From positions 384,001-448,000 of the forward strand of contig OZ219872.1 of NCBI GenBank assembly GCA_964291495.2: a stretch of 64,000 nt of DNA, in the 5' to 3' direction. Within the stretch, counting starts at the first letter, position 1, and each line of letters starts with the position of its first letter. This document shows positions 6,210 through 43,216 of this stretch, piece after piece. Source of the stretch: Dehalococcoidia bacterium (GTDB lineage Bacteria > Chloroflexota > Dehalococcoidia > UBA2979). Under the pieces are notes generated by a model that did not search any database, was not told the origin of the DNA, and worked only from the letters and a program-made list of their open reading frames with translations. The position numbers were made by a program, and so were the translations under genes.

Positions 6210-7508
6210 ATCGTCGAGATCGCCCCGTTCCGCGGGCTCCGCTACGACCCCTCGCGCGTGAACCCGAACGCCGTGATCGCCCCGCCCTACGACGTGGTCG
6301 ACGAGGACGAGGTGGCCGCGCTGCACGCCAGCTCGCCATACAACATCGGCCGCGTCGAGGCGCCTCGGGGCGGCAACGAGCGCTTCGAGGCGGCGGCGGC
6401 GGCGCTGCGCGCCTGGGAGGCCGAGGGCGTGCTGCTGCGCGACCCCGCGCCCGTCCTCTACGCCTACGAGCAGCGCACGCGCATCGAGGGCGACGACGGC
6501 CCGCGCCGCGTACGGCGCGGCTACTTCGCGCGGCTGCGCCTGACCCCCTACGAGGACGGCGAGGTGCTGCCGCACGAGCGCACGATGGCCGCACCGAAGG
6601 CCGAGCGGCTGGCGCTGATGGAGGCGACGCAGGCCAACGTGAGCCCGATCCTCGTGATCTCCGGCGCGGACGCGGACGCCGTGACGCTGCTCGACGAGGT
6701 CGCCGCGCGCGAGCCTGCCTTCGCCGCCACGGACGGACGCGGCGACGAGCATCGCCTCTGGGTGATCGACGATCCCTCGCAGATCGCCAGGCTCGTCGAG
6801 GCTGCCGCGGCTGCGCCCGTCACGATCGCCGACGGCCACCACCGCTACGAGACGGCGCTCGAACACCTCGAAGGCCTCGACGAGGAGGGGCGGCGCTGGA
6901 TGCTCGCCTGCCTCGTGCCCGCGAACGCCCCGGGCCTCGACATCTTCCCCACGCACCGGCTCGTACCCCAGGTGGAGGTGACGGACGCCCTCGTCGCGCG
7001 GCTCGCGGCCCTCTACGAGGTCGAGCCGCTCGCGACGCGCGCCCCGCATCCCGCCGACCCGCTGGACCGCGGTGCGGTGCGGCGGCTCTGGGAGACCGTG
7101 CAGGCGGAGGCGTCGCGGCCCGGCACATTCGGCGTGATCGGGCTACCGGGCGGCGGGCTGCACCTGCTGCGCCCACGTTCGCCCGAGGAGATCGACGCGC
7201 TGATGCCCGCCGACTGGTCCGAGGCGTCACGCGCCCTCGACGCGCAGATCCTCAACCAGACGATCCTCGAGCCGCTGCTCCGCATCGACGCCGCGGAGCT
7301 CCGCGCCGGGCGAGTGCAGTTCAGCGAGGACGCCGGACACGCCTGGGAGTGGGTGCGGGGCGAGCCGGGCCGCCTCGCCTTCCTCGTCAATCCGCCGAGC
7401 GTCGAGCGGGTCGTCGCGATGGCGAGCGCCGGCGGGGTGATGCCGCAGAAGGCGACCTACTTCTACCCGAAGCTGGCGACCGGGATCGTCCTCAACCGCC
7501 TCGATTGA
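6210..7508 (+). CDS. DUF1015 family protein (ParB/Srx-like motif), probable ATC start
   Basis: IAPPYDV, VLPHERT, IADGHHRYETA, MPQKATYFYPKL. The family N-terminus (x)VEIAPFRGLRYD begins at ATC 6210, 7 nt after GAGGAG. Confidence 0.88.
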   Translation: MVEIAPFRGLRYDPSRVNPNAVIAPPYDVVDEDEVAALHASSPYNIGRVEAPRGGNERFEAAAAALRAWEAEGVLLRDPAPVLYAYEQRTRIEGDDGPRRVRRGYFARLRLTPYEDGEVLPHERTMAAPKAERLALMEATQANVSPILVISGADADAVTLLDEVAAREPAFAATDGRGDEHRLWVIDDPSQIARLVEAAAAAPVTIADGHHRYETALEHLEGLDEEGRRWMLACLVPANAPGLDIFPTHRLVPQVEVTDALVARLAALYEVEPLATRAPHPADPLDRGAVRRLWETVQAEASRPGTFGVIGLPGGGLHLLRPRSPEEIDALMPADWSEASRALDAQILNQTILEPLLRIDAAELRAGRVQFSEDAGHAWEWVRGEPGRLAFLVNPPSVERVVAMASAGGVMPQKATYFYPKLATGIVLNRLD

Positions 7509-7517
7509 GCCTCGAGG

Positions 7518-9098
7518 CTAGGTGAGGTTGATCAGTCGCACGCCATAGATCGCGTCGAGCGTCTCGAGGGCGGCGCGCTCGGAGGGTGTCAGCGGGCGGT
7601 CGATGCCGAGCACCATCAGCGCCCGGCCCTCCTCGCCGCTGGCGACTGACATGAAGTTGATGTTGATCGACCAGTCGCCGAGCAGGCTGCCGACGCGTCC
7701 GACCATGCCCGGCCGGTCCACGTTCTCCACCGCGAGCACGTAGGGCGCCGCGCCGGACAGGAACTCGACCTCGAAGCCGTCGATGCCGACGATGCGCACG
7801 CCGGCCTGCGTGTGCGTGGCGGCGACGGCGGTGGAACCACTGTCCGCGATCACGCGCACGACCACGAGGTTGGCGTAGGGCTCACGCGCCGCGCCGCGAT
7901 CCTCGACGATGGCGAGCCCGTGCTGCCGCGCCTCTTGGTCGGCGTTCACGATCGTGACCTTGCCGTCTGAGACGGGCTCCAGTACGCCGACGATCGCGGC
8001 GGCTCGCAGCGGACCCAGCTCGTGGTTCGCGATCTCGCCGAGGTAATCGATGCGCAGCTGCGCGAGCTGCCCGCCCTGCAATTGGGAGGCGACGCTGGCG
8101 GCCACCTCGGCGGCGTCGAGGTAGGGCCCGATGATCGCCATCGTCTCCGGGTCGACCAGCGGCGCGTTGACCGCGAAGCGGGCGGGCCGCCCCGCCAGCA
8201 CCGCCAGCACCTCGTCGACGACCTCGACGGCGGCGCGGTCTTGCGCCTCGGCCGTCGAGGCGGCGAGGTGCGGCGTCACGACCACGCCGTCCGTGGCCGT
8301 GAGCACGTTGCCGATCGCGGGCTCCTCGCTGAAGACGTCGATGGCGGCGCCCGCGATCACGCCGCCCTCGACGGCCTCGTGCAGCGCCTGCTCGTCCACG
8401 AGGGCGCCGCGCGCGGTGTTCACGAGGTAGGCGCCGGGCTTCATGCGCGCCAGCTGCTCGCTGCCGATCAGGCCGCGCGTGCCCTCGTGCAGCGCGGTGT
8501 GCAGCGTCACGAAGTCGGCCTGCTCCAGCAGCTCGTCGAGCGAGACGAGCTCGACGCCGATCGAGGCGGCGCGCTCGCTGGAGACGAACGGGTCGTGGGC
8601 GATGACGCGCATCTCGAAGGCGCGCGCGCGCGCGGCGACGCCCGAGCCGATGCGCCCGAGGCCCACCACGCCGAGCGCGTGCCCGGCCAGCTCGACGCCC
8701 TGCAGCCTGCTGCGCTCCCAGCGGCCCTCGCGCAGCGAGGCGTGGCCCTGCGGCACGTTGCGCGCGACGGCGAGCAGCATCGCGAAGGCGTGCTCGATGG
8801 CGGACATGGTGTTGGACAGGGGCGCGTTGACGACGACGACGCCGCGCGCCGTCGCCGCATCGAGGTCGATGTTGTCGACGCCGACCCCGGCGCGGCCGAT
8901 CACCGTGAGCTGCGGGGCGGCCTCGATGATGCGTTCCGTGACCTGAGTCTGGCTGCGCACGATGATGCCGGCGACGTCGGCGACGGCCTCGACGAGTTCG
9001 TCCTCGCTCAGGCCGGTGCGGACGATCGCGTCGTGGCGTTCCTGCAGGCGCTCGATGCCCTGTTCGGCGATCTGATCGGCGACGAGGACGGTCGCCAT
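7518..9098 (-). CDS. serA: D-3-phosphoglycerate dehydrogenase (long form with ASB and ACT domains)
   Basis: GRAGVGVDNID, GLGRIG, VNTARG, TPHLAAST, C-terminal DRPGMVG ACT domain. Confidence 0.95.
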   Translation of the reverse strand: MATVLVADQIAEQGIERLQERHDAIVRTGLSEDELVEAVADVAGIIVRSQTQVTERIIEAAPQLTVIGRAGVGVDNIDLDAATARGVVVVNAPLSNTMSAIEHAFAMLLAVARNVPQGHASLREGRWERSRLQGVELAGHALGVVGLGRIGSGVAARARAFEMRVIAHDPFVSSERAASIGVELVSLDELLEQADFVTLHTALHEGTRGLIGSEQLARMKPGAYLVNTARGALVDEQALHEAVEGGVIAGAAIDVFSEEPAIGNVLTATDGVVVTPHLAASTAEAQDRAAVEVVDEVLAVLAGRPARFAVNAPLVDPETMAIIGPYLDAAEVAASVASQLQGGQLAQLRIDYLGEIANHELGPLRAAAIVGVLEPVSDGKVTIVNADQEARQHGLAIVEDRGAAREPYANLVVVRVIADSGSTAVAATHTQAGVRIVGIDGFEVEFLSGAAPYVLAVENVDRPGMVGRVGSLLGDWSININFMSVASGEEGRALMVLGIDRPLTPSERAALETLDAIYGVRLINLT

Positions 9099-9125
9099 CG
9101 AGCGGCCTCCCGTTGCGTCCGCGCC

Positions 9126-10229
9126 CTACCCGCCGGCCGCGGCCGGCACGGCGTGGCCGAGTTTCGCGAGGCTGCCGCGCAGCGCCTCCAGGCCGCCGCG
9201 CACGTCCTCGTCGGTCGTGTAGCCGAGATGGCCGAAGCGGATGATCTGGCCTCCGAGGCTGGCCTGCCCGCCTGCGAAGACGGTGTCGTAGTCCGTACGG
9301 GCGATCGCGCGGATTTCGTCGGCGGCGAGGCCTTCGGGCGGCAGCATGGCGGTCACGGTGTCGGAGCGGACGCCCTCGGCGGCGAAGAGCTCGAGGCCAA
9401 GCGCCTCGAGGCCGTCGCGGACGCGCTCGGCGGTCGCCAGGTGGCGCGCCCAGACGGCCTCCATGCCCTCGGCGCGCAGCATGCGCAGCGCCTGGCGCAG
9501 CTGGAACATCAGCGAGATCGCCGGCGTCCACGGCGTCTGTCCGGCCTCCTGCGAGCGCTGCGCCCGCCGCAGGTCGAGGTACATGCGAGGCGTGGTGCAG
9601 CGACCCTGCGCCTCCCAGGCGCGCTCGCTGACGCTCACAAAGGAGAGTCCCGGCGCCGTCATCCAGCCCTTCTGCGAGCCGGACACCACCACGTCGAGCC
9701 CCCACGCGTCCGTCTCCAGCGGGATCGAGGAGAGCGAGGAGATGGCGTCGACGATCAGCAGCCGGTCGCGGGCGCGGACGACCTGCGCGATCTCCTCGAG
9801 CGGGTTGGTGACGCCAGTGGAGGTCTCGTTGTGCGTGACGAGGACGGCGCGGATCTCGGGGTCCGCGGCGAGGGCGTCGTCGATGCGCGCCGGGTCGGCG
9901 GCGCTGCCGTAGACAAAGCCGAGGTGCACCGGGTCGCCGCCGTAGATGCGGACCAGCTCGAGGAAGCGCTCGCCGAAGACGCCGATGGTCACCACCAGCA
10001 CGCGGTCGCCGGGGCCGACGTGGTTGACGACCGCGGCCTCCATGCCGGAGGTGCCGGAGCCGGTCAGGGTCAGCACGTCGTGCTCGGTGCGGAAGGCGTA
10101 GCGCAGGCCCTCGTGGAGCTCGCCGATCAGCTCGGCGAACTCGGGACCGCGATGGTTTATCATCGGGGCCGCGCCCGCCTGGGCGACCTCCGCGGGAACG
10201 GGAATCGGACCCGGCGTACGCAGGTTCAC
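9126..10229 (-). CDS. Class V PLP aminotransferase (serine-pyruvate/alanine-glyoxylate type; probable phosphoserine aminotransferase given context)
   Basis: LRTPGP, HNETSTGV, VDAISS, SGSQKG (PLP lysine). Directly upstream of serA. Confidence 0.9.
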   Translation of the reverse strand: MNLRTPGPIPVPAEVAQAGAAPMINHRGPEFAELIGELHEGLRYAFRTEHDVLTLTGSGTSGMEAAVVNHVGPGDRVLVVTIGVFGERFLELVRIYGGDPVHLGFVYGSAADPARIDDALAADPEIRAVLVTHNETSTGVTNPLEEIAQVVRARDRLLIVDAISSLSSIPLETDAWGLDVVVSGSQKGWMTAPGLSFVSVSERAWEAQGRCTTPRMYLDLRRAQRSQEAGQTPWTPAISLMFQLRQALRMLRAEGMEAVWARHLATAERVRDGLEALGLELFAAEGVRSDTVTAMLPPEGLAADEIRAIARTDYDTVFAGGQASLGGQIIRFGHLGYTTDEDVRGGLEALRGSLAKLGHAVPAAAGG

Positions 10230-10320
10230 GGCGCCTCCGGAGACGGGGATTCAGGTCGGCCGGCTGGGCGCGATCATCGTCCACCCGCGCCCCGATAGCG
10301 TCAACGCGAGTGGCTACCCT

Positions 10321-10476
10321 TTCCCGTCATCCCTGCCTCCCCCTTCCCGTCATCCCTGCCTCCCCCTTCCCGTCATTCCGGCGAAAGCCGGAATCCAGGC
10401 ACGCCTACTCATCGGGGCGTTCGGGGCGGGCGGGAGTCCTCCCCCTCACCCCCGCCCTCTCCCCAGGGAGAGGGGG
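10321..10476. repeat. Composite REP-like element: 23-nt tandem duplication, family B palindrome (CGTCATTCCGGCGAAAGCCGGAATCCAG, 10371-10398) and family A (CCCTCACCCCCGCCCTCTCCCCAGGGAGAGGG, 10441-10476)
   Basis: The same motifs recur at 17229/17313, 43833, 46790 and 56778-57400. Confidence 0.85.
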
Positions 10477-10542
10477 ACGGAGAGGAGCGGAGCGCGCGCC
10501 TCGTCCTCGCCGGCCTGGTCGAACGGCAGGAACTGCCGAGCC

Positions 10543-12927
10543 CTACCGCACGGCGGCGAGGAGGGCGACGGTGACGCCGTCGCCGCCTTCCGGGCGCGTG
10601 CCGGTTTCGTAGGCGGTGACGAGGGGGTGGCGGTCGAGGAGGTCGCGGACGGCGCGGCGCAGCGCGCCGGTGCCCTTGCCGTGGATGATGCGCACCCGCT
10701 CGCGGCCGGCGCGCGCGGCGTCGTCGAGGAACGCCTCCACCGACGGCAATGCCTCGGCGACGATCTGGCCTCGGATCTCGATCTGCTCGGGGGCGCTCGG
10801 CGCGGGCGGGGTGCGCACCGCGACGATTACCTCGCCGTCGGGCTGCTCGATGCGCTCGACCTGGGCGAGGCGCACGCGCGTGCGCAGCGCGCCGAGCTGC
10901 ACCTGGAACTCGCCCGCCTCGTCCGGCTCGCTCAGCGCCTCGCCGGGCGAGCCGATGCCGCGCAGCCAGACGTGCGAACCGATCTCCGGCGCGGGCAGCG
11001 TGCGGGGGGCCCTCGCCGCCGCCGGGCGGGCGTCAGCGACAGGCTCCGGCGTCGGCTCGGGTACCAGCGCCGCGGCGGCCTCGCGGGCGCGTTCGAGGTC
11101 GGCCGCGGCCTGCTCGAGGCGCGCCGACTCCACCTCGCGGCGCGCGCGTTGCAGCATCCGCTCCGCGTCGCGGACCTCCTCGCGGACGCGCTCGCGCGAC
11201 TCGGCGCGCAACCGCTCGCCCTCGTCCGCCAGCGCCGCGAGCTGTCGCTCGAGGTCCGCGCGCAGCTCCTCGGCGGCGTCGCGGTCGGCGGCGGCGCGGG
11301 CCGCGCGGTCCTCGGCGGCGCTGAGCTGCGCGCGCAGCTCGCCGAGCACCGCCTCGAGGTCGCGCTGCTCGTGCGAGAGCCCCTCGCGCGCGGCCTCGAC
11401 GATCGCGCCGGGCATGCCGAGCCGCTCGGCGATGGCGAGCGCGTTGGACTGGCCCGGCACGCCGATGCGCAGCCGGTAGGTCGGCGCGAGCGTCTCCACA
11501 TCGAACTCCACCGAGGCGTTGCGCACCGCCGGGTCGCGGTGCGCGAACAGCTTCAGCTCGCTGTGGTGCGTGGTCGCGATCAGCGTCGCGCCCGCCTCGA
11601 TCAACCGCCCGACGATCGCGATCGCCAGCACCGCGCCCTCGGTCGGGTCGGTGCCCGCCCCCAGCTCGTCGAGCAGCACGAGCGAGCGCTCCCCGGCGCG
11701 TTCGAGGATGTCGATGATCGCGGTCACATGGCCGGAGAAGGTCGAGAGCGACTGCTCGATCGACTGCTCGTCGCCGATGTCGGCGAAGACGGCGTCGTAG
11801 ACAGGGATGCGGGTGCCCTCGTCGGCGGGGACGGGCAGTCCGGCGAGCGCCATCAGCGAGAGCAGCCCGGCGGTCTTGAGCGCCACCGTCTTGCCGCCGG
11901 TGTTCGGCCCGGTGATCAGCAGCGCCCGCGTCTCGCCGCCCGCCTCGATGGTGACCGGCACGACTTCGCCCTCGAGCAGCGGGTGGCGCGCCTCGACGAG
12001 GCGCAGCGCGGCGGGCGCCTCGACGAGCCACGGGACATCGCTCCCCGCCTCGGTCAGCTCCGAGGCGGCCAGCTCCTCGGCGAGCTGCGCCTTGGCCAGC
12101 GCGAGGTCGATCCTCGCGAGGCGCTCGACCGCGTCGACCAGCTCGTGCTCCGCCTCGCCGGCGGCCTCGGAGAGCGTGCGCATGATGCGCTCGATCTCGT
12201 GGCGCTCCTGCGCCTGCAGCTCGCGCCAGCGGTTGCCGAGGTCCACGACCGCGAGCGGCTCGATGTAAATGGTGGCTCCCGAGGCGGAGGTGTCGTGCAC
12301 GATGCCGGGCACGGCGCTGCGCGACTCGGCGCGCACCGGCAGCACGTAGCGCCCGTCGCGCAGCGTGACAATCGGGTCCTGGAGGGCGGGGCGCAGCGCC
12401 GAGGAGCGCAGCAGCGCCTCCATGCGCTGCTGCAGGCGGCCGTGCACGGCGTCGCGCTCGCGGCGGATCGTCTCCAGCTCGCGGCTCGCCGAGTCGCGCA
12501 CCTCGCCGCGCTCGTCGACGGCGGCGGCGATCAGCCCGCGCAGCGCCTCGAGGTCGGCGAGCCCGGCGGCGCGCGTCGAGAGCAGCGGGGTCTCCTGGCG
12601 CACGCGCGCGAAGGTGCGACGGATCCGCGTCGCCGCCCTCGCGAGGTCGGCGATCTCCAGCAGCTCCGAGGGCGCGAGCACCTGCCCGCGCCCCGACGTG
12701 CGCGCCGAGGCCCGCACGTCGCGCACGCCGCCCAGGCCCACCTCGACGCGCAGCGTGCGCAGGCGCACGGCCTCGGCGGTCTCGCGCTGGCGGCGGACGG
12801 CGCGCTCGCGGTCGGCGACGGGCCGCAGCGCGAGCGCCAGCTCGCGCCCGGCCGAGAACGAGGTCGCGCGTGCGAGCCGTTCCCGGATCGCCGGGAACTC
12901 GAGGATGGCGAGCGCCTTATCGTCCAG
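10543..12927 (-). CDS. mutS2: MutS2 (ribosome-collision/anti-recombination ATPase with Smr domain), probable CTG start
   Basis: ITGPNTGGKT, DIGDEQSIEQSLSTFS, LLDELGAGTDP, IIHGKGTG (Smr). The conserved N-terminus (x)DDKALAILEFPAIRERLA..TSFSAGRELA lies upstream of the track start, beginning at CTG 12927 after GGAGG. Confidence 0.93.
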   Translation of the reverse strand: MDDKALAILEFPAIRERLARATSFSAGRELALALRPVADRERAVRRQRETAEAVRLRTLRVEVGLGGVRDVRASARTSGRGQVLAPSELLEIADLARAATRIRRTFARVRQETPLLSTRAAGLADLEALRGLIAAAVDERGEVRDSASRELETIRRERDAVHGRLQQRMEALLRSSALRPALQDPIVTLRDGRYVLPVRAESRSAVPGIVHDTSASGATIYIEPLAVVDLGNRWRELQAQERHEIERIMRTLSEAAGEAEHELVDAVERLARIDLALAKAQLAEELAASELTEAGSDVPWLVEAPAALRLVEARHPLLEGEVVPVTIEAGGETRALLITGPNTGGKTVALKTAGLLSLMALAGLPVPADEGTRIPVYDAVFADIGDEQSIEQSLSTFSGHVTAIIDILERAGERSLVLLDELGAGTDPTEGAVLAIAIVGRLIEAGATLIATTHHSELKLFAHRDPAVRNASVEFDVETLAPTYRLRIGVPGQSNALAIAERLGMPGAIVEAAREGLSHEQRDLEAVLGELRAQLSAAEDRAARAAADRDAAEELRADLERQLAALADEGERLRAESRERVREEVRDAERMLQRARREVESARLEQAAADLERAREAAAALVPEPTPEPVADARPAAARAPRTLPAPEIGSHVWLRGIGSPGEALSEPDEAGEFQVQLGALRTRVRLAQVERIEQPDGEVIVAVRTPPAPSAPEQIEIRGQIVAEALPSVEAFLDDAARAGRERVRIIHGKGTGALRRAVRDLLDRHPLVTAYETGTRPEGGDGVTVALLAAVR

Positions 12928-14308
12928 CAGAAGCCTCCGAACCGCCCTCGCAGAGTGCGGCCAGCGAGTTGGCGACGTGGCGGTCGTCGCCGGGCTCGAC
13001 CGTGCGCGGGTCGAGCAGCACCGCGCCGCGCTCGATGCGCGCGACGATCGGCGGGTCGGCCTCGCGCAGGGCGGCGGCGAAGGCGTCCGCCCCGCCGGGC
13101 GGCGCGGCGATCGCGCAGACGGGCGACTCGAGGCCCTCGCCCGGCAGCGAGCCGCCGCCGATCATCGAGCGCGCCGTGTCGACCGAGGCGCCCGCGTCTT
13201 CGCCGCAGGCGCGCGCCCAGCGCCGCGCGCGCCGCCGCAGCCCGTCCGCCGGTGCGGCGATCATGCGCCAGATCGGGATCTCCTCGATAGCCTCGCCGCG
13301 CGCGTAGTGGCCGAGGGTGGCGGCCAGCCCGGCGATCGAGGCCTTGTCCATGCGCACGGCGCGGGCGAGCGGGTGGCGCTGCATCGCGCCGATCGCACCC
13401 TCGCGGCCGACGGCGACGCCCGCCTGGGGGCCGCCGATCAGCTTGTCGCCGGAGAACAGCGTCACGTCCGCGCCGGCGGCGACCGAGTCGCGCACGAGCG
13501 GCTCGGCGCCCAGCCCGTGCTCGCGAGGATCGAGCAGCGCGCCGCTGCCGAGGTCGTCGATCAGCAGCAGCCCGCGCTCGCGGGTGAGCGAGGCCAGCGC
13601 CGGGAGCGGCGTCTCCTCGGTGAAGCCGACGACGCGGAAGTTCGAGGCATGCACGCGCAGCAGCGCAACGGTGCGCTCGCTGATTGCCTCGGCGTAGTCG
13701 CGCAGGTAGGTGCGGTTCGTCGTGCCGACCTCGACGAGGGTCGCGCCGGACTGGCGCATCACATCGGGGATGCGGAAGCCGCCGCCGATCTCGACGAGCT
13801 GGCCGCGCGCGATCACCACCTCGCCGCCGGCGCAGAGCGCGGAGAGCGCGAGCAGCAACGCCGAGGCGTTGTTGTTGACCGCGATGCCGGCCTCCGCGCC
13901 CGTCACGCGCGCGAGCAGGTCGGCGAGGTGGCTGAAGCGCGAGCCGCGCTCTCCGGCCTCGAGGTCGAACTCGAGGTTCGAGTAGCCCTCTGAGGCGGCG
14001 GCCATCGCGGCGATCGTGGCATTCGAGAGCGGGGCGCGGCCCAGGTTGGTGTGGATGATCACGCCGCTCGCGTTGACCACGCGGCGCAGGCTCGGCTCCA
14101 GGCTCGCAGCGCGGTCGGCGACGGCCTCGGCGGCCGACTGCTCGGGCAGCGCGCCCGAGCGCTCGATCTCCGCGCGGTAGTCGTCGAGGACCTCGCGGGC
14201 GACGCGCACGATCGCCTCGTGGCCGTGGCGCTCGGCGAGCGGGGCGACGCGCGGGTGCGTCAGCAGCCGCTCGATCGCCGGCAGCTCGCGGTACGGGTTC
14301 GTCGTCAT
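12917..14308 (-). CDS. selA: L-seryl-tRNA(Sec) selenium transferase
   Basis: VNASGVIIHTNLGRAP, VEIGGGFRIPDVM, EVGTTNRT, FSGDKLIGGPQAG. Confidence 0.95.
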   Translation of the reverse strand: MTTNPYRELPAIERLLTHPRVAPLAERHGHEAIVRVAREVLDDYRAEIERSGALPEQSAAEAVADRAASLEPSLRRVVNASGVIIHTNLGRAPLSNATIAAMAAASEGYSNLEFDLEAGERGSRFSHLADLLARVTGAEAGIAVNNNASALLLALSALCAGGEVVIARGQLVEIGGGFRIPDVMRQSGATLVEVGTTNRTYLRDYAEAISERTVALLRVHASNFRVVGFTEETPLPALASLTRERGLLLIDDLGSGALLDPREHGLGAEPLVRDSVAAGADVTLFSGDKLIGGPQAGVAVGREGAIGAMQRHPLARAVRMDKASIAGLAATLGHYARGEAIEEIPIWRMIAAPADGLRRRARRWARACGEDAGASVDTARSMIGGGSLPGEGLESPVCAIAAPPGGADAFAAALREADPPIVARIERGAVLLDPRTVEPGDDRHVANSLAALCEGGSEASAGR

Positions 14309-14462
14309 CGTCGCGTCCTCACGCACCACGCGCCCTCCGGACGCGTCAATGAGCACTGTCGATTGTACGTTCGCGCGGCGACCCTGCCGAGGGTGGCGCT
14401 GCCGAGGGCGGGCCGCCTGCGCTATGTTCGCGGGCGACCCGCGTTCGCGAGGGAGGCAGGCC

Positions 14463-15659
14463 GTGGACTTCACGCTCTCGCCGGAGGTGGACGCGCTGCG
14501 CCGGCGCATTCGCGACTTCACCGAGACGCGCATCATCCCCCTCGAGGCCGACCCGGACTCCTGGGACGAGCACGAGAACATCCGACTCGACCTGCTCGAG
14601 GACGTGCGCGCCGAGGTCAAGGCGCAGGGGCTGTGGGCGCCTCAGATGCCGCGCGAGCGCGGCGGGCTCGGCCTCGAAGTGGCGGGCATGGCGGCCTGCT
14701 ACGAGGAGATGGGCCGCTCGCTCTTCGGCCCCGTCAGCTTCAACTGCGCCGCCCCGGACGACGGCAACATGATCCTGCTCGAACGCGTCGGCACCGAGGC
14801 GCAGAAGGAGCGCTGGCTCGACCCGATCATCGAGGGCCGCGTGCGCTCAGCCTTCGCCATGACCGAGCCTGCGCCGGGCTCCGGTTCGGACCCCTCGATG
14901 ATGCTCACCACGGCCGAGCGCGACGGTGACCACTGGCGCATCAACGGCCGCAAGTGGTTCATCACCGGCGGGGCGGAGGCGCAGCACTTCATCCTCGTCG
15001 CGCGCACCAGCGACGACGAGCGCCGAGGGCTGACCGCCTTCCTCTTCGACGCCGACCAGCCCGGCTGGGAGATCGAGCGGCGCATCCCGATCATGGGGCC
15101 CGAGGAGCACGGCGGGCACTGCGAGCTGCGCTTCGACGACCTCGTGATCCCCGACGACCAGCGACTGATGGAGGTCGGCGAGGGTCTGAAGGCGACGCAG
15201 ATTCGCCTCGGCACGGCGCGCCTGACGCACTGCATGCGCTGGCTCGGCATGGCGCAGCGCGCGATGTCGATCGCCGCCGACTACGTGCGCGAGCGCGAGA
15301 GCTTCGGCCAGAAGCTCCACGAGCACGAGGGCGTGCAGTGGATGCTCGGCGAGGTCGCGATGGCGATCGAGGTGGGCCGCCTGCTCACGATGCGCGCCGC
15401 CTGGCGGCTCGACCAGGGCGACTTCGCGCGTCAGGACGTCTCGATGGCGAAGATTCACGTCTCCGAGACGCTGCACAAGGCCGTCGACACGGCGATCCAG
15501 CTCTGCGGCGCGCGCGGCTACTCGAAGGACACGCCGCTGGAGTGGATGTACCGCTACGCCCGCCAGGCCCGGCTCGTCGACGGCGCCTCGGAGGTGCACA
15601 AGATGGTGCTTGCCCGGCTCTACATGCAGGAGGAGCACGACTTCTGGAGCTGGCAGTGA
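14463..15659 (+). CDS. Acyl-CoA dehydrogenase, ACAD10/11 or LvaC-like
   Basis: FNCAAPDDGNM, FAMTEP, INGRKWFIT, ARLVDGASEVH. GTG start after GGAGG. Confidence 0.92.
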   Translation: MDFTLSPEVDALRRRIRDFTETRIIPLEADPDSWDEHENIRLDLLEDVRAEVKAQGLWAPQMPRERGGLGLEVAGMAACYEEMGRSLFGPVSFNCAAPDDGNMILLERVGTEAQKERWLDPIIEGRVRSAFAMTEPAPGSGSDPSMMLTTAERDGDHWRINGRKWFITGGAEAQHFILVARTSDDERRGLTAFLFDADQPGWEIERRIPIMGPEEHGGHCELRFDDLVIPDDQRLMEVGEGLKATQIRLGTARLTHCMRWLGMAQRAMSIAADYVRERESFGQKLHEHEGVQWMLGEVAMAIEVGRLLTMRAAWRLDQGDFARQDVSMAKIHVSETLHKAVDTAIQLCGARGYSKDTPLEWMYRYARQARLVDGASEVHKMVLARLYMQEEHDFWSWQ

Positions 15660-17152: not shown

Positions 17153-17160
17153 GACGGCTG

Positions 17161-26972: not shown

Positions 26973-27235
26973 TGAAGACCACGCTCAACATCGACGACAC
27001 GGTGATGAAGCGGCTGCGCGAAGAGGCGGCGCGGCGCGACACGACCATGTCCGCGCTCGTCGAGGCAGGCCTGCGGCGCATCCTTGATGACGAGCCTTCC
27101 ACGGGGTCCGTCGAGGCGGAACTGCCGCCACTCCCGACATGGAACGGGGGCGAGGCGCGGGTTGACGTGGCCGATCGCGACGCGCTGGAAGCGGTGATGG
27201 GTGGCGACGGCCCGTACACGACACCGGGAGCGTAG
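26972..27235 (+). CDS. vapB: Ribbon-helix-helix antitoxin (VapB-like)
   Basis: MKTTLNIDDTVMKRLREEAARRDTTMSALVEAGLR, directly upstream of a PIN toxin. Confidence 0.85.
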   Translation: MKTTLNIDDTVMKRLREEAARRDTTMSALVEAGLRRILDDEPSTGSVEAELPPLPTWNGGEARVDVADRDALEAVMGGDGPYTTPGA

Positions 27236-27240
27236 GCACC

Positions 27241-27675
27241 CTGCTGGTCTTAGACACCAACGTCCTGCTCGACGCCGCCAACGAGGCGTCGGGATTCCAC
27301 GGCGCGTGCGCGGGGCTGCTCGATGAGGCGCGCCGCGATCCGTCTCCGGCGTACCTGACCTGGAACATCTGCTACGAGTTCATGCGGGTAAGTACTCACC
27401 CGCACGTATTTACGTCACCATGGCGCATCGACGAGGCTCGCGAGTTCATCGAGGAGCTGCTTGCGTCGCCGGGCTTCGGGCTGCTTCGCGCTACCGAACG
27501 GCACGCTGCTGTCCTGAGCCAAACGCTGTCCGAGCTGCCGGCGCTCCGGGGGAACGTGGTGCATGACCTCCACACAGCGGTACTCATGCGCGAGCACGGC
27601 ATCAGCCGTATCTGCACTCGTGACGCGGACTTCCACCGCTTCCCGTTCCTCACGGTCGTCGATCCGCTCGGCTGA
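27241..27675 (+). CDS. vapC: PIN-domain toxin VapC, probable CTG start
   Basis: (x)LVLDTNVLL..ICYEFMRV..GNVVHDLH..TRDADF, containing the four PIN acidic residues. The track start at 27382 would remove the first two. Confidence 0.85.
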   Translation: MLVLDTNVLLDAANEASGFHGACAGLLDEARRDPSPAYLTWNICYEFMRVSTHPHVFTSPWRIDEAREFIEELLASPGFGLLRATERHAAVLSQTLSELPALRGNVVHDLHTAVLMREHGISRICTRDADFHRFPFLTVVDPLG

Positions 27676-27802
27676 CTTGTAGCCCCCCGCGCTGGCGCCG
27701 CCGGGGGCGCATCGCTACGATGGACGGGACCGCCCATTCGAACCGCCGAGGGGCGCCGTCCCCCGTTTGCGACGCCCTCCCCCACCACGATCGAGGTGGA
27801 CT

Positions 27803-30781
<2,979 letters not shown>

Positions 30782-32290: not shown

Positions 32291-32317
32291 CACAGGTCGA
32301 CGGACCGCACGCACAAC

Positions 32318-32341
32318 GAAGCGCCGCTCTCGCGGCGCTTC
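32318..32341. terminator. Hairpin between the convergent ferredoxin and phosphoesterase genes
   Basis: GAAGCGCCGC-TCTC-GCGGCGCTTC, a perfect 10-bp stem. Confidence 0.65.
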
Positions 32342-32367
32342 TGCTTGTCTGCGGAAGCTCCCGAGCG

Positions 32368-34559: not shown

Positions 34560-34688
34560 GCGGGGGCTCCTCGTTACGTCGTGTGATGGCTGGCGCCGGT
34601 GGACGCGGGGGAGCGTAGCACCGCCCCGCACTGCCCTCAACGAAGGTCGCCGGAGCGGAGCGCAATCAGCGCAGTGGAGCGGCCGCCC

Positions 34689-34838
34689 TCATGATCGCTC
34701 TTGCTTCTCTCTCTTCCTCAGCCGGCGCGCGCGCTCACCGATCAGCCTCTGGATGTTCTTCAGGCTGAAGCCGTGCGTGCGCATCTCACGCCTCTTGCGT
34801 CGCTTCTGCTCACGCCGCTCACCCTTCGTCTGACTCAC
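34689..34838 (-). CDS. Small, very basic protein (49 aa), below the ORF-track cutoff
   Basis: GTG..TGA encoding MSQTKGERREQKRRKRREMRTHGFSLKNIQRLIGERARRLRKREKQERS. Purine-rich leader and an upstream promoter. Confidence 0.65.
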   Translation of the reverse strand: MSQTKGERREQKRRKRREMRTHGFSLKNIQRLIGERARRLRKREKQERS

Positions 34839-35100
34839 GCGCCGCCTGCGCCTTCCTCACCAGCCCGCGATCGCGCGACCCTGAGGGGTGCGTCCTCATC
34901 CGGCGAGCGTGCCGCGCCCGCGGCCAGCGGGGCGCGGTAGCGTCGCTGTTCCGCGTCATCTTCATGCAGAAACCATACGACCGAGGCCCAGGTCGGCAAA
35001 GCCGCCCGCGTCTGGAACAACCCTTGAGGGCCCGCGAGGGCCGGGCCTTGCAGCCCGGCCCCGTCCGGTTCGCGCACTCGGCGGCGCCGCGCCGGTGCGG

Positions 35101-37179
<2,079 letters not shown>

Positions 37180-37292
37180 GTCGCCCCCACTCAGTGCGTA
37201 CAGAACCCGTCAGCCGGGCATGCTCGCGCACCTACGCCGCGCGCGCCACCCTCGGGGATGTTAGCACCACTGCTGTTAATGCCCGATATCGC

Positions 37293-37970
37293 CTACGCAA
37301 TATCCGCCGGTGTGTCTCCCGCTCCCCCGCCCTCGAGGGCGTCGAGCCGGCTCGCAAGCCGCTGCTGCTGCGCCGCCAGCGTGAGATCGCCGCGCGTGCG
37401 CTCGATGATGCCGCGCGTCACGTCGGTGGCGCGCCGCAGGTTCGAGGTCATCGCGTCCGGGTAGTCGATCGTCACCAGCAGCGACTGCATCTCGTCCATC
37501 CGCTCGAGCATCGCCTCGCAACGCTCGAGGTCCTCCGCGCGCAGCGAGTCGAGCACGTGGCGGCGCAGCTCGCCGATCGCCTCGGCGATGCCGTGCAGGT
37601 AGGAGACGCCGCGCACGCCGAGCGAGTGCGGGGTGGGCAGCTCGCCGCCGGCGATCAACGCGAGCGTGATCGCCGCTTCGGCGTACTCCTTCTGCGCGTC
37701 GTGGACGAAGCCAGCGTGGGCGATCTGCGGGAAGCCCTCGGTCGCCGCTGCGGCCTCGGCGAGCGCGGATCGCGCCTCCTCGAGGAGTCGCGCCGCGGCC
37801 TCGGTGTCGCCGCGATGCACGGCGCGGATGCAGTTCGCCGAGGAGCGGACGGCGCCGCGGCAGAGCGGCAGCGCCGCCTCGCGCGCGGCGTTCGTCGCCT
37901 CGAGGTCCGTGCGGATGCCCTCGACGGCGCGCGCCAGCTCGGCGCCAAAGCCGCTGTCCAGGTCCGGCAT
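37293..37970 (-). CDS. Translin/TRAX family protein
   Basis: All-helical pattern with RE..LPLCR..R.S..CIRAVHRG, QKEYAEA, YLHGIAEAIGELRR and LRRATDVTRGIIERT. Confidence 0.82.
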   Translation of the reverse strand: MPDLDSGFGAELARAVEGIRTDLEATNAAREAALPLCRGAVRSSANCIRAVHRGDTEAAARLLEEARSALAEAAAATEGFPQIAHAGFVHDAQKEYAEAAITLALIAGGELPTPHSLGVRGVSYLHGIAEAIGELRRHVLDSLRAEDLERCEAMLERMDEMQSLLVTIDYPDAMTSNLRRATDVTRGIIERTRGDLTLAAQQQRLASRLDALEGGGAGDTPADIA

Positions 37971-37975
37971 GGCGC

Positions 37976-38314
37976 TCAGGCGTCCTGCGCCGGGCCGGGC
38001 AACTCGCCCTCGCGTGCGGCGTCGATCATCTCTCGGGTCTCGTCGGGCAGATCCATCCCGTACTCCTCGAAGCGCTCTTCGACCCAGCGGCCGATCTGGC
38101 GCGGGTCACGGTACTCTCCGCCCTCGCCTGGCGCGCCGTACTCGTCGATCACGTCCTGGTCAGTCTTGAGCCGGGCCACCGAGGAGATCTGCCGCGCCGT
38201 GCGGGGGGAGCCGCAGTGCTCGCACTCCGGCGCCTCGGGGTCTTGGCGCATCGAGCGCACGAAGAGGCTGGTCAGGCCCTCGCACTCCTCGCAGCGGTAC
38301 TCGTAGATGGGCAG
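37976..38314 (-). CDS. FmdB-family zinc-ribbon protein, probable CTG start
   Basis: (x)PIYEYRCEECEG..PECEHCGS..RQISS with an acidic tail. The track start at 38260 removes the first CxxC. Confidence 0.85.
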   Translation of the reverse strand: MPIYEYRCEECEGLTSLFVRSMRQDPEAPECEHCGSPRTARQISSVARLKTDQDVIDEYGAPGEGGEYRDPRQIGRWVEERFEEYGMDLPDETREMIDAAREGELPGPAQDA

Positions 38315-38318
38315 GCGG

Positions 38319-38723
38319 CTAGTCCGGGTTCCCGCGGCTCGCCTTCGATTTCGCCTCGTTGATCTTGTGGCGGAAGGTGTAGCCCGCGTCGATCCGCTCG
38401 ACGGGGTCCTCGCCGGCCTCGGCCTGCTCGGCGAGCTCGCGGTAGTTCGAGCCCAGCACCTCGTCGTACTCGGCGCTGGCCTGGCGGGCCCACTTCGCGA
38501 AGCCGCGCTCGTCGCCGCGTTCGAGGGCGGCCTCGTGTTCGCTGAAGTCCACCTCGGCGAGGCGGTCCGCGTCAGAGCGGACGCGCGCGAACTGGGACAC
38601 CAGGCGAGTCAGCTGCGCGCCCCCGCACTCCGGGCACTTCGGCTCGCTCGTCGCCGAGACGGAGCGGAAGAAGACCTCGACGGTGTCGGCGCAGTCGGCG
38701 CAGTCGTACTGGTAGATCGGCAT
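38319..38723 (-). CDS. FmdB-family zinc-ribbon protein
   Basis: MPIYQYDCADC..PKCPECGG..RLVS. TACACT -10 element 9 nt upstream of the ATG. Confidence 0.88.
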   Translation of the reverse strand: MPIYQYDCADCADTVEVFFRSVSATSEPKCPECGGAQLTRLVSQFARVRSDADRLAEVDFSEHEAALERGDERGFAKWARQASAEYDEVLGSNYRELAEQAEAGEDPVERIDAGYTFRHKINEAKSKASRGNPD

Positions 38724-38784
38724 GGTGCTGAAAGTGTAGCGGCCCGCGCCGTCCTCGCAACAGCGAACGCCGCCCCGGCCGCCC

Positions 38785-39153
38785 CTACCCCTCGACCGCG
38801 CTGCGGATGTGCTCGAACGAGGCAACCGAGCCGTCCGCCGCCAGGTCGATAGCCACGAGGTCGATGCGCTGGTCTGCGGGCAGCTCGGGGTGCTCCATGC
38901 CGTAGGCGGCGGCCAGCTTGCGCAGGCGGCGCTGCTTGCGCGCGCTCAGTTGCTCGATGGCGCGTCCCGCCTGGCGCGGCCGCCGCAGCTTCACCTCCAC
39001 GAAGACGAGCGTGCCGCCCTGCAGCGCGACGAGGTCCACCTCGCCCTCGCGGCGGCGCACGTTGCGGTCGACCAGCCGGTAGCCGCGGGCCTTCAGGTAG
39101 TCGGCGGCCAGGCGCTCGCCGGAGCGTCCGAGGCGGTCGGTCGGCCTCGTCAC
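38785..39153 (-). CDS. yraN: YraN family (UPF0102) PD-(D/E)xK nuclease
   Basis: GERLAADYL..GY, GEVDLVA, LVFVEVK, RIDLVAI. Confidence 0.9.
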   Translation of the reverse strand: MTRPTDRLGRSGERLAADYLKARGYRLVDRNVRRREGEVDLVALQGGTLVFVEVKLRRPRQAGRAIEQLSARKQRRLRKLAAAYGMEHPELPADQRIDLVAIDLAADGSVASFEHIRSAVEG

Positions 39154-39809
39154 GGACGCTGGCGGCTCTCCAGCGCCTCGCGCACCGGCGCGAAGAGCAG
39201 GCGGTGCACGCTCGAGTGGCCGAGGCGGCGCAGCGCCTCGCGGTGCTCGGCGGTGGCGTAGCCCTTGTTGCGCGCGAACCCGTAGCCGGGGAAGCGCCGC
39301 TCCAGCTCGTCCATCATGCGGTCGCGCGCGACCTTCGCGACGATGCTCGCCGCGGCCACCGAGGGGCAGAGCGCGTCGCCGTCGATCACCGCGTGCTGCC
39401 GCGTCTTGCACTCGACGACCTCGCGTCCGTCGACGATCAGCGCGTCCGGGGGGTTGTCGAGTTGCTCGACGGCGCGGCGCATCGCGAGCCGCGTCGCGGC
39501 CGTCATGCCGAGCTGGTCGATGACGTGCGAGGAGACGACGCCGATGCCGTAGTCGCAGTGGCGGCGAATCCGGGCGGCGAGCTCCTCGCGGGCGGCAGCG
39601 TCGAGTTGCTTGGAGTCGCGCAGCCGCCGGACCCAGCCGGCGCGCGAGTAGCGCAGCACCACGGCGCCGGCGACGACCGGCCCGGCGAGCGGCCCGCGGC
39701 CGACCTCGTCCACGCCGGCGACGCGCTCGCAGCCCTCGCGCCAGAGGGCGTTCTCCACCTGCCACGTAGGCTTCGAGGTGCGGCGCGGTCGTTCGAGTAC
39801 GGCAACCAC
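39150..39809 (-). CDS. rnhB: Ribonuclease HII
   Basis: [38 protein letters not shown]. Confidence 0.95.
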
Positions 39810-40003
39810 GGCCGCATGCTAGGCGCGACGATACCGATCAGGCAAGTGATCCGTTGTGCGGGCCGCCGCGTGCCGCGCCGCCTCGCGGCCCACCGGGGCG
39901 CGAAGCGGGCCCGGTGATACACTGGATCCGGCGCTCACGCGGGCGAGGCCTGCGAGTCCCTCGGGGCGGCCCAGCCTGAGCGCGAGGGAGCGTCCCGGAT
40001 CAG

Positions 40004-41974
40004 ATGAAATCCCGCTGGATGCGCAACTCCTTCATCTACCTGATCATCCTCGGCGCGGTCGTCCTGGCCGTCGTGATGTTCCTGCGCCCCTCCTCCAACT
40101 CGCGCGAGATCCCGCTCTCCGACGTGATCGCGCAGGCGCAGGCCGGCAACGTCGTCTCGATCAAGGCCTCGGGCGACACGCTCGAGGTGCAGTTGCGCGG
40201 CGAGCGCGAGCCGCTCAGCTCGCGCAAGGAGGAGTCCGCCTCGATCGTCGAGATCCTGCGTGAGAGCGGCGTCCCCGTGACCGGCGAGGGCGCGGTCGAG
40301 ATCGAGGTCAGCGGGCCCAGCCAGTTCGGCAATATCTTCGGGCTGTTCTTCAACTTCCTGCCGCTGATCCTGTTCGGCGGGATCCTGATCTTCATGATGC
40401 GCCAGGCGCAGGGCTCCAACTCGCAGGCAATGTCCTTCGGGCGCAGCCGCGCGAGGATGTTCACCGGCCAGAAGCCGACCGTCACCTTCCTCGATGTCGC
40501 GGGGCAGGACGAGGCGAAGCAGGAGCTCGCCGAGATCGTCGAGTTCCTCAAATTCCCGGAGAAGTTCGCCGCCCTCGGGGCGCGGATCCCGCACGGCGTG
40601 CTGCTGGTCGGCTCGCCCGGCACGGGCAAGACGCTGCTCGCGCGCGCCGTCTCCGGTGAGGCGGGCGTGCCGTTCTTCTCGATCTCCGGCTCCGAGTTCG
40701 TCGAGATGTTCGTCGGCGTCGGGGCCAGCCGCGTGCGCGACCTGTTCGAGCAGGCCAAGCGCAACTCCCCCGCGATCGTCTTCGTCGACGAGATCGACGC
40801 GGTCGGGCGGCAGCGCGGGGCGGGCCTCGGCGGCTCGCACGACGAGCGCGAGCAGACCCTGAACCAGATCCTGGTCGAGATGGACGGCTTCGACTCCAGC
40901 TCGAACGTGATCGTCGTCGCGGCCACGAACCGCCCGGACATCCTCGACCCGGCGCTGCTGCGCCCCGGCCGCTTCGACCGCCAGGTGACGCTCGACCTGC
41001 CCGACGTGAAGGGCCGCCGCGCGGTGCTCGACGTGCACGTCAAGGGCAAGCCGCTCGACACCGACGTCGACCTCGAGACGGTCGCGAAGCAGACGCCGGG
41101 GTTCTCCGGCGCGGACCTCTCCAACCTCGTCAACGAGGGCGCGATCCTCGCGGCGCGGCGCAACAAGAAGCGGATCGGGATGCCCGACCTCAACGAGGCG
41201 GTGGACCGCGTGATCGCCGGCCCGGAGCGCAAGTCGCGCGTGATCACGCCGCAGGAGAAACGGATCATCGCCTACCACGAGGGCGGGCACGCCGTGGCCG
41301 GGCACTTCCTCCCGAAGGCGGACCCGGTCTTCAAGGTCACGATCGTCGCGCGCGGCATGGCCGGCGGGTACACCCGCTCGATGCCCTCGGACGACCGCCG
41401 CCTGCAGGACCGCTCCTACTACGAGGCGATGATGGCGCAGGCGCTCGGCGGCCACGTCGCCGAGGAGATGATCTTCGGCGAGCCGACCACGGGCGCGCAC
41501 GACGACATCGGCAAGGTCACGCACATCGCCCGCGAGATGGTCACGCAGTGGGGCATGAGCGAGCGGCTCGGTCCCCGCACCTTCGGCCGCCGCGACTCGA
41601 TGGTCTTCCTCGGGCGCGACATCGCCGAGCAGCGCGACTACTCCGAGCGCACCGCCGAGGAGATCGACGAGGAGGTGCGCCGCATCGTCGAGGAGGCGCA
41701 TGAGCGCTGCCGCGAGGTGCTGCGCGAGCACCGCGGCAAGCTCGACGAGCTGGCAGAGGCGCTGATCGAGCTCGAGACGATCGAGGGCGACGACCTGCAG
41801 CGCCTGCTCGGCCCGGCCGAGGGCCGCGAGCCGCCGCCCGAGCCGGCCCCGCCCCCGCCCGAGGACGCTCCGGGCGCCGAAGCCGGCGAAGACCTCGAAA
41901 CCGAGCCGCCGGTGGGCCGGCCCGGTCTGGCCTGGGGCCAATCCAGCGCCGCGCCGCCGTCGGGCGGCGGATAG
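40004..41974 (+). CDS. ftsH: ATP-dependent zinc metalloprotease FtsH
   Basis: Two TM helices, [33 protein letters not shown]. TGnTACACT promoter near 39915. Confidence 0.97.
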
Positions 41975-42036
41975 CCGCCACCCGACCACACGTCCCGACC
42001 TGTCGAGGTGTCGCGCCGCTGAGCTGGCGCGCGCCC

Positions 42037-42753
42037 TTACGCCTCGGCGGACGGCTCCGCGGCGGCCTCGATCGACGACTGCTCTTCCTCTTCTTGCATC
42101 GCGTTGCGATAGCTCTTGATGAACTCGCGCTGGGCGAGGACGAACCAGATCGCGGCGCCGAGGCCGAGGCCGATGCGCAGCGCGGGGTGCTCGTCGAGCT
42201 TGCCCTCGGGGGTGAGCACGGCCTGCCCGAGAATCCAGCCGGCGCCGACCCAGACCGAGTTGGTCAGGATCGCGCCGAGGTAATCGAGGGGCATCCAGAC
42301 ACGCAGCGGCATGCGAATCGCGCCCGCTCCGAACGGCCCCAGCGTCCGCGTCCAGCTGTTGAGGTGATAGAAGGGGATTAGCCAGAGCGTCTTGCCCCCG
42401 ACGATCATCTTCCCGATCCGCAGCTGCGGGCCGAACCGCGAGCGCTCGAGCCGGCCTCCGCCCCAGCGCCCGAGCGCGTAGGACAGCGTGTCGCCGAGGA
42501 TCGTGCCGAGGAAGGCGAGCGCGAAGATCATGCCGATTGGCGTGCCCTGGTCGTCCGCGAAGGCGCCTCCGAGGAACATCATGATCACGCCGGGGTAGAT
42601 CAGGCCGAGACCGACCGTCGCCTCGATCAGCGCCGAGGCGAAGACAACCGGCGCGCCGAAGCGATCGAACAGGTCGTTCGCGATCAGGAACATCTGGTCC
42701 GCGACCCAGTTGAGGGCGTCGTAGGGCGCGGTGATGATGTCGAGGAACTCCAC
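42037..42753 (-). CDS. DedA family membrane protein
   Basis: IEATVGLGLIYPG, LGTILGDTLSYALGRWGG, PFGAGAIRMP. Confidence 0.85.
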   Translation of the reverse strand: MEFLDIITAPYDALNWVADQMFLIANDLFDRFGAPVVFASALIEATVGLGLIYPGVIMMFLGGAFADDQGTPIGMIFALAFLGTILGDTLSYALGRWGGGRLERSRFGPQLRIGKMIVGGKTLWLIPFYHLNSWTRTLGPFGAGAIRMPLRVWMPLDYLGAILTNSVWVGAGWILGQAVLTPEGKLDEHPALRIGLGLGAAIWFVLAQREFIKSYRNAMQEEEEQSSIEAAAEPSAEA

Positions 42754-42792
42754 CGCGGACCTCCGCCGGCGGCATCCGGCGGTGCGCCTTCA

Positions 42793-42822
42793 TTGACGCT
42801 CCGCGCCGGGCCTGCCTAGGAT
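42793..42822 (+). promoter_or_regulatory. sigma70-type promoter of rplU-rpmA-rpmE
   Basis: TTGACG-N18-TAGGAT. Confidence 0.65.
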
Positions 42823-42895
42823 CGTAACGGTCGCGCCTGCGATCACTACACGCCAGCGGCGCACCACCAGCATCGACCAGCCGGAGTACGACGCC

Positions 42896-43216
42896 ATCTC
42901 CTACGCAATCATCCGCACTGGCGGGAAGCAATACCGCGTGCGCGAGGGCGACCAGCTCGCCGTCGAGCGGCTCGATGTGCCCGAGGGCGCCGAGGTCGAG
43001 TTTGACGACGTGCTGCTCGTCTCGGACGGCGAGGACGTGACGGTTGGCGATCCGACCGTCGAGGGCGCCTCGGTGGCCGCGCGCATCGACGAGCACACGC
43101 GCGACAAGAAGGTGCTGGTCTTCAAGTACAAGAACAAGACACGGCGGCGCGTGTTGCGCGGGCATCGCCAGCAGCGCACGCGCATCACGATCACCGGCAT
43201 CAGCGCCGGGGCGTAG
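42896..43216 (+). CDS. rplU: 50S ribosomal protein bL21, probable ATC start
   Basis: (x)[28 protein letters not shown]. The universally conserved first strand lies upstream of the first GTG at 42938. Confidence 0.93.

Follow-up and report, generated by a model that had tools for sequence, protein, structure and literature searches.

The use of start codons other than ATG, GTG, and TTG has already been described in bacteria. In the available part of the Deinococcus report, N-terminal proteomics showed that dnaA starts at ATC and rpsL at CTG, and the starts of Deide_03051 and infC were given as CTG and ATA, respectively (PMC2830850). As far as the accessible text of the Caulobacter crescentus study goes, ribosome profiling and liquid chromatography-mass spectrometry of 3235 coding sequences assigned CTG to 0.7% and other near-cognate codons to 0.25% of the starts, 0.95% in total (PMC4117421). 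For initiation factor 3 (IF3), residue R131 of the RFRGR motif (129-RFRGR-133) contacts the start codon, and the R131P change or a swap to KKGK relaxes discrimination; the consulted portion of that source names E. coli R131P, the mitochondrial KKGK, and R131 replacements of Mycoplasma as such variants (PMC11775629). In the literature on non-canonical start codons, whose broader results were judged by titles and abstract openings, nothing on Chloroflexi or Dehalococcoidia was found. Here, we analyzed a stretch of 64,000 nucleotides (the window; positions 384001-448000 of contig C6) from the genome of a Dehalococcoidia bacterium, G000 (3.08 Mb, 8 contigs, 71% GC), whose related records are titled uncultured Dehalococcoidia (Chloroflexota) metagenome-assembled genomes. 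Six genes of the window, those for a DUF1015 protein, MutS2, a VapC toxin, UvrA, an FmdB-family protein, and the ribosomal protein L21, open with ATC or CTG.

An initial annotation of the window had claimed that six of about 60 genes start at these codons, each exactly where the initiator Met of the family is expected. With our own codon-usage gene caller, 59 open reading frames (ORFs) were called in the window, all six codons were found at the claimed positions, and each was followed by the expected family N-terminus. The caller replaced a plain ORF pairing, which was dropped since it chose wrong frames in this high-GC DNA. The DUF1015 gene (6210-7508, plus strand) starts at ATC and opens IVEIAPFRGLRY, with a GAGGAG Shine-Dalgarno (SD) motif (6197-6202, plus) 7 nt before the codon. 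The mutS2 gene (10543-12927, minus) starts at CTG at 12927 and opens LDDKALAILEFP; its GGAGG motif (12934-12938, minus) lies 6 nt before the CTG. The vapC gene, encoding a PIN toxin (27241-27675, plus), starts at CTG 5 nt past the TAG of the upstream ORF, opens LLVLDTNVLLD, and is preceded by a GGGAG SD-like motif. The uvrA gene (27803-30781, plus) starts at CTG, 3 nt after a GAGGTGG motif (27793-27799, plus). The rplU gene for L21 (42896-43216, plus) starts at ATC, 9 nt after a GGAG motif (42883-42886, plus). The sixth gene, FmdB-2, is the second of a tandem pair of FmdB-family zinc-ribbon genes (37976-38314, minus); it starts at CTG, opens LPIYEYRCEEC, and lies 4 nt after the TAG of its upstream paralogue (38319-38321, minus), so a coupled reinitiation after this stop is likely. 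The SD motifs of the five genes other than FmdB-2, which end 3-10 nt before the start, and the 4-nt distance of FmdB-2 from the preceding stop thus agree with the initial annotation. SD-like motifs are common in this genome, and the presence of an SD motif alone is therefore weak support.

The reading frames around the six codons were then considered in both directions. As the initial annotation had held, no upstream in-frame ATG, GTG, or TTG precedes the nearest stop in five of the six genes; the exception is uvrA, which has an in-frame TTG at 27767, 12 codons upstream of its CTG. If the first downstream canonical codon were used, 16 residues would be lost from DUF1015, 53 from MutS2, 47 from VapC, 69 from UvrA, 18 from FmdB-2, and 14 from L21; these downstream starts would cut off the first acidic residue of the PIN domain in VapC and the first CxxC in FmdB-2. 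When the genes were translated from the claimed codon and compared with NCBIfam and Pfam profiles, the family profile began at residue 1-4 in all six proteins. Position 1 of PF06245 (Pfam) fell at residue 4 of DUF1015, position 2 of TIGR01069 at residue 3 of MutS2, position 3 of TIGR00028 at residue 2 of VapC, position 2 of TIGR02605 at residue 2 of FmdB-2, and position 1 of TIGR00061 at residue 3 of L21, and positions 4-942 of the 943 in NF001503 covered residues 4-955 of UvrA (the last five being NCBIfam profiles). Moreover, the coding signal of the codon-usage caller set in 0-11 codons from each claimed site. All six codons differ from AUG at one position and sit at the N-terminus of their family.

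The codon at the homologous start position was read in 30 relatives, consisting of 18 congeners and 12 genomes from other families of the class; genus counts of 19 are G000 plus the 18 others, and the outgroup comparisons are limited to genes chosen from G000, a biased sample for near-cognate rates. All 19 genomes of the genus carry the uvrA CTG. Its upstream TTG was kept in one of the 18 other congeners (L088) and absent from 17. The class outgroups start uvrA at ATG, TTG, or GTG. In ten more distant, non-genus, high-GC Dehalococcoidia genomes, uvrA starts canonically (five ATG, three TTG, two GTG); the genus probably acquired its CTG through a T-to-C change in TTG, consistent with GC pressure. 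The mutS2 CTG was found in all 17 genomes of the genus with a match, while the outgroups carry GTG, TTG, or ATG; an internal Leu codon of this gene varies among CTC, CTG, and CTT, and the first CTG is invariant. Among the more distant high-GC Dehalococcoidia, mutS2 begins with CTG in four, with ACG behind a good SD in three, and with ATG and GTG in one each. The ACG column occurs in loci L179, L183, and L184 (position 1001), all from metagenome-assembled genomes, with the SD 5-7 nt upstream, and L179 has an in-frame TAG seven codons upstream of the ACG. Because these distant relatives use CTG or ACG for mutS2 but canonical codons for uvrA, near-cognate use is, by these alignments, gene- and lineage-specific beyond the genus.

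The ATC of DUF1015 was found in 18 of the 19 congeneric genomes (ATG in G006), and an SD motif (GAGGAG, GAGGAGG, or GAGGGAG) was retained in those bearing ATC; ten N-terminally aligned orthologues from nine other families start at ATG, GTG, or TTG. The FmdB-2 CTG was present in 11 of 19, and the other eight, which form a second subclade, as well as 11 outgroup matches, have ATG or GTG in the same column. The rplU ATC was carried by the same 11 genomes, the other eight having ATG one codon later, and ten outgroup genomes gave ATT (three), ATC (three), ATG (two), GTG (one), and TTG (one). For vapC, the CTG was found in seven of eight orthologous loci, including that of G000, with L147 out of frame; its paralogues start at GTG, ATG, or TTG. 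Each of the six codons is, as had been pointed out, one G-to-C change from ATG or GTG; the relatives point to other routes, with TTG in three uvrA relatives outside the genus and ATT in relatives of rplU.

Two features of the neighborhoods were noted. The tandem FmdB-family paralogues (38319-38825 and 37976-38314, both minus) are separated by 4 nt in the CTG subclade and by about 30 nt in the ATG subclade. A promoter-like TTGACG, an 18-nt spacer, and TAGGAT lie upstream of rplU (42794-42823, plus), and the TAGGAT box recurs in the other subclade; neither an Rfam match (E up to 1) nor an unusual fold was found in this upstream region.

The constraint on the start CTGs was compared with that on internal codons. 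In the same alignments, a single codon was used in 14 of 60 invariant-Leu columns (1 of 19 in mutS2, 0 of 10 in vapC), whereas the start CTGs were invariant in four of four. This comparison says nothing for ATC, since 22 of 29 Ile columns are codon-invariant. Furthermore, contigs of the public run X1 differed from the window by one position at most over 27000-27954, 37062-40410, and 41801-43080, and the starts of vapC, uvrA, FmdB-2, and rplU were identical; the runs X2, X3, and X23 represent related strains and were not counted as support for the start codons. The same codons were present in the highly fragmented assemblies G002, G003, G005, and G007 and in the SPAdes-style contig L177, which excludes a platform artefact. 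The initial annotation had argued that random errors would not concentrate on start codons, and their recurrence across separately assembled genomes and in the X1 contigs bears this out: they are not sequencing errors but a lineage-wide feature. Judged by sequence comparison, the codons are real, conserved, and located at the family N-terminus.

We consider it very probable that the six codons are real starts which are read as near-cognates by the ordinary initiator fMet-tRNA(CAU), with the help of an SD motif or of coupling to a preceding stop, and which have been selected as weak starts. The initiator would pair as a near-cognate with CUG or AUC. At four starts, the SD would position the 30S subunit, and at vapC and FmdB-2, the ribosome is probably positioned instead by termination at the upstream stop 4-5 nt away. 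Selection would keep the codons across a genus of uncultured Dehalococcoidia of about 71% GC, and partly beyond it. Weak starts may hold back the synthesis of proteins required at low levels, such as UvrA, MutS, MutS2, LexA, the VapC toxin, and small zinc-ribbon proteins; functions of this sort, with a plausibly low output, predominate among the cases. Where the start is AUC, as in infC, rplU, DUF1015, and the homoserine dehydrogenase gene, translation would follow the level of IF3, as that of infC does elsewhere. The origin of the codons may lie partly in GC pressure (TTG to CTG, ATT or ATA to ATC), and a Gly-to-Ala variant in the RFRGR motif of IF3 may help their tolerance. The tuning by weak starts, the partial origin in GC pressure, and the IF3-aided tolerance are our inferences.

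The initiation machinery was inspected for changes. The only initiator-type tRNA-Met(CAU) of the genome lies in the window (62059-62133, minus), with a C1xU72 mismatch and three G:C pairs by the anticodon loop. Among the 56 tRNAs called, three have the anticodon CAU and only this one carries the initiator marks; two other tRNAs with a 1:72 mismatch were oddly long calls and were taken as spurious. The three G:C pairs are intact, which argues against an altered initiator tRNA. The gene sits in an unusual place, between the 23S (62282-64000) and 5S (61814-61931) rRNA genes, and a tRNA-Ile(UAU) is found at C6:464152-464228 (minus) besides the three CAU tRNAs.

Inspection of infC, which the initial annotation had suggested, revealed two features. 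Firstly, the start codon of infC (C6:161031-161582; locus L333) is ATC throughout the genus (19 of 19). In 10 of 11 outgroups, an AUH codon occupies the same position (six ATA, three ATC, one ATT); in the eleventh, L361, the match sets in at residue 4 of the query and the next codon is ATC. Secondly, in the RFRGR motif of IF3, a conserved Gly is replaced by Ala, giving FRARE (LRARE in one) vs FRGRE. By the numbering in the available part of the published work, the residue replaced by Ala is Gly132, while R131 and R133 are unchanged (PMC11775629). The Ala form was found in 19 of 19 congeneric genomes, in nine of nine more distant relatives with a close IF3, and in 119 of the 120 best database homologues, the 120th being a mis-hit of the search pattern; the Gly form was found in 11 of 11 outgroups of the class, in G040, and in Thermus and Geobacillus-type chains. 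The change is a lead for relaxed proofreading, suggested by the alignment. The IF3 homologues from this clade in the database are annotated at 165 to 261 residues, a spread which fits start miscalls.

The initial annotation had further presented a rate near 10% as a sign of relaxed start-codon selection or of a lineage-wide layer of translational control. That the starts are a lineage-wide feature is retained. Relaxation is disfavored by the normal tRNA and by the infC ATC, and favored by the Ala form of IF3.

The frequency of near-cognate starts was estimated beyond the window, in which the six starts amount to about 10%. Among 2848 genes, 98 showed a coding signal of 5 log-odds units or more upstream of the first canonical codon, and 51 showed one of 8 or more; this list includes selenoprotein and frameshift cases. 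For the comparison with a congener, 1.2 Mb (44%) of G013 was taken, which gave 840 ortholog pairs with G000. In 283 pairs, the edge of the conserved region in G013 coincides with a canonical start preceded by an SD, and the aligned G000 codon was ATG in 140, GTG in 77, TTG in 9, CTG in 9, ACG in 5, GTC in 4, CTC in 1, and ATC in 1. A strict filter yielded 16 near-cognate calls, 6 with a canonical partner, and five decoy codon sets yielded 0-1 with such a partner. A joint column scoring with decoys was confounded, since decoys adjoining true noncanonical starts score equally, and only the partner-canonical counts are usable. An extension test returned 26 of the 840 pairs, and about half of these were false by inspection, among them an internal site of hemC, a selD-like and a CPWC-like ORF starting behind an in-frame stop (probably selenocysteine), a hisI-like gene with a frameshift, rpsG (whose ATG is present), a region overlapping a tRNA, and conserved SD regions. 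The ftsY candidate is canonical, with GTG two codons upstream. After manual sorting with profiles, about 19 near-cognate starts were confirmed or probable and about 6 were further candidates (up to 25), i.e., 2-3% of the 840; the firm cases are 16 (1.9%). The window is therefore a local cluster and not the genome average, and the claim of a 10% rate as a property of the genome does not hold. The survey of the genome and its relatives, also suggested in the initial annotation, thus yielded conserved near-cognate starts, at a rate of 2-3% rather than 10%.

Five of the window genes have G013 orthologues and are counted among these genome-wide cases. The others include mutS (CTG vs GTG in G013, with the profile matched from position 2), lexA (CTG), infC (ATC), the genes for homoserine dehydrogenase (ATC vs ATT in G013), a lipase (ATC vs ATG), a CoA-transferase subunit (CTG vs GTG), an MBL-fold protein and a zinc-ribbon protein (both CTG vs ATG), and an MFS transporter (CTG vs GTG). 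For all of these except the MFS transporter, the family profile again starts at residue 1-4. Near-cognate starts are candidates only in carB, rnpA, UPF0182, and the genes for a ParB-like and a PIN protein. Canonical starts were found in recA, uvrB, uvrC, dnaA, and rpsL and are probable for mutL.

Several loci met in these surveys deserve mention. A hisI-like gene (GLIPAILQD; window 45565-45909, minus) is one base out of frame near 45885 relative to its G013 orthologue, just upstream of a conserved block, which reflects either a real frameshift or an assembly indel. A PIN-domain gene at C6:185595 (plus) has GTC where G013 starts with GTG, with no canonical codon nearby; it is either a double-mismatch start or a decaying gene. 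In the available part of the Caulobacter study, one GTC start is verified (PMC4117421). ORFs with a coding signal right after an in-frame stop, or a few codons on, were found in G000 at C5:1609705 (minus), C5:550167 (minus), C6:241734 (plus), C2:42814 (minus), and C5:178019 (minus). They include a selD-like and a CPWC-like gene as well as three paralogues sharing one upstream 20-mer, and are probably selenocysteine (TGA) proteins; a tRNA-SeC is present at C6:655918-656014.

Several observations weigh against the proposal of selected weak starts aided by a tolerant IF3. The N-termini are deduced from the DNA. The contig comparison spans four of the starts (vapC, uvrA, FmdB-2, and rplU), and X1 is the only clean check and may be the source sample itself. 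The genome-wide rate rests on a sample of a single congener and on hand sorting. A crude SD-anchored scan of the genome showed no enrichment of CTG or ATC, with SD-like pentamers being frequent inside genes, and a start model fitted by expectation-maximization over 61 sense codons was dropped for its high noise floor (CCC 123 genes, ATA 35). As to weak output, rplU is highly expressed, and recA, uvrB, uvrC, dnaA, and rpsL keep canonical starts; rplU and infC suggest an IF3-linked control rather than low output. As to IF3, the retained ATC of infC implies that the factor still disfavors such codons. In addition, the Gly-to-Ala change maps to one branch and is a single event, ATT or ATC was already the rplU start in 6 of 10 outgroup genomes, with the Gly form of IF3 where it was found, and uvrA is canonical in nine of nine non-genus genomes with Ala. 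For these last three reasons, the link to IF3 is only a lead.

Among the other explanations, the one that survives best holds that slightly deleterious changes became fixed in host-associated populations through drift and GC-biased mutation and are tolerated with no regulatory role. Sequences nearly identical to the window come mostly from runs labelled sponge metagenome (four runs compared; the label rests on small shares for most runs), uvrA has TTG in 3 of 10 non-genus relatives and CTG within the genus, and FmdB-2 and rplU differ between the subclades, the noncanonical positions being scattered and gene-specific. Drift under GC pressure probably supplied the changes. Nevertheless, the start CTGs stayed invariant while most internal Leu codons changed, no reversion to ATG, GTG, or TTG was seen among 19, 17, and 11 genomes, and CTG is common to four DNA-repair or SOS genes. 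Drift with no further role is thus a possible but rather doubtful account.

A bolder account would give IF3 the leading part: the Gly-to-Ala change in a large clade would have loosened proofreading, so that CUG, AUC, and even ACG became regular starts, and the DNA repair and SOS genes, rplU, and infC would follow the IF3 level. We regard this as improbable.

It is less probable still, and by a wide step, that initiation takes place at a canonical codon, either the next one downstream or one upstream, and that the conserved stretch in between is an untranslated leader or an overlap. The uvrA gene of G000 does have its in-frame TTG 12 codons upstream, and some genome-wide candidates proved to be of this kind (the GTG of ftsY two codons upstream, the ATG of rpsG, the internal site of 'hemC'). 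However, five of the six genes have no upstream canonical codon, the uvrA TTG is absent in 17 of the 18 other congeners, downstream starts would delete 14-69 residues required by the profiles, and the codon-usage signal begins 0-11 codons from the claimed sites. A repair at the RNA level, either by C-to-U editing (CUG to UUG, ACG to AUG) or by a second initiator-like tRNA with another anticodon, is hardly credible. Both the CTG and the ACG of the related metagenome-assembled genomes would become canonical after C-to-U editing, but ATC would stay noncanonical; a single credible initiator-type tRNA was found among the 56 called, with the anticodon CAU, and a contig from an RNA library over the uvrA start has no difference there among those listed. 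The remaining idea, that G was misread as C in sequencing or assembly and the true codons are ATG or GTG, can be set aside almost entirely, since, for all that each codon is one G-to-C change from these and the hisI-like gene may carry an assembly indel relative to G013, the same codons recur in 11-19 separately assembled species-level genomes, complete and fragmented, and in public-run contigs, with no shared context hinting at a methylation-linked miscall.

The preferred interpretation, near-cognate starts read by the ordinary initiator tRNA and kept as weak starts, has practical consequences. Standard gene callers accept ATG, GTG, and TTG alone, so about 2-3% of the clade's proteins would be truncated or mis-extended, including UvrA, MutS, MutS2, LexA, L21, and IF3, and metagenome-derived protein families would be distorted. 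The clade would add a second phylum after Deinococcus-Thermus with near-cognate starts in core genes, and it offers a natural IF3 motif variant bearing on start-codon fidelity.

The phenomenon as such is already known, and the lineage, the genes, and a somewhat higher rate make the present case a modest extension. As in Deinococcus-Thermus, judged by the accessible sections of that report, ATC and CTG starts occur in conserved housekeeping genes, a ribosomal protein gene included, are kept in relatives, and are missed by gene callers (PMC2830850). The Deinococcus work, in the same sections, concerns four genes with N-terminal peptides (PMC2830850), whereas here at least 16-19 of 840 sampled genes are proposed from the sequence; the genes are also different (uvrA, mutS, mutS2, lexA, rplU) and belong to another phylum. 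Like Caulobacter, this is a high-GC bacterium with measurable CTG and other near-cognate starts; against the figures in the available text, the rate here is about 2-3 times the 0.95% of Caulobacter, and CTG is about as frequent as TTG (9 vs 9 in the partner test), while Caulobacter uses TTG in 10.3% and CTG in 0.7% (PMC4117421). The infC ATC, present throughout the genus, resembles the autoregulation of infC via an AUU, AUA, or AUC start, but here rplU, DUF1015, and the homoserine dehydrogenase gene also start at codons of this weak class, with a putative response to IF3. Finally, in common with the IF3 variants named in the portion of the source consulted (PMC11775629), a natural change falls in the same five-residue motif in a lineage with non-AUG starts; it differs from them in that Gly132 is replaced by Ala with R131 and R133 kept, and its effect on discrimination is a prediction from the motif.

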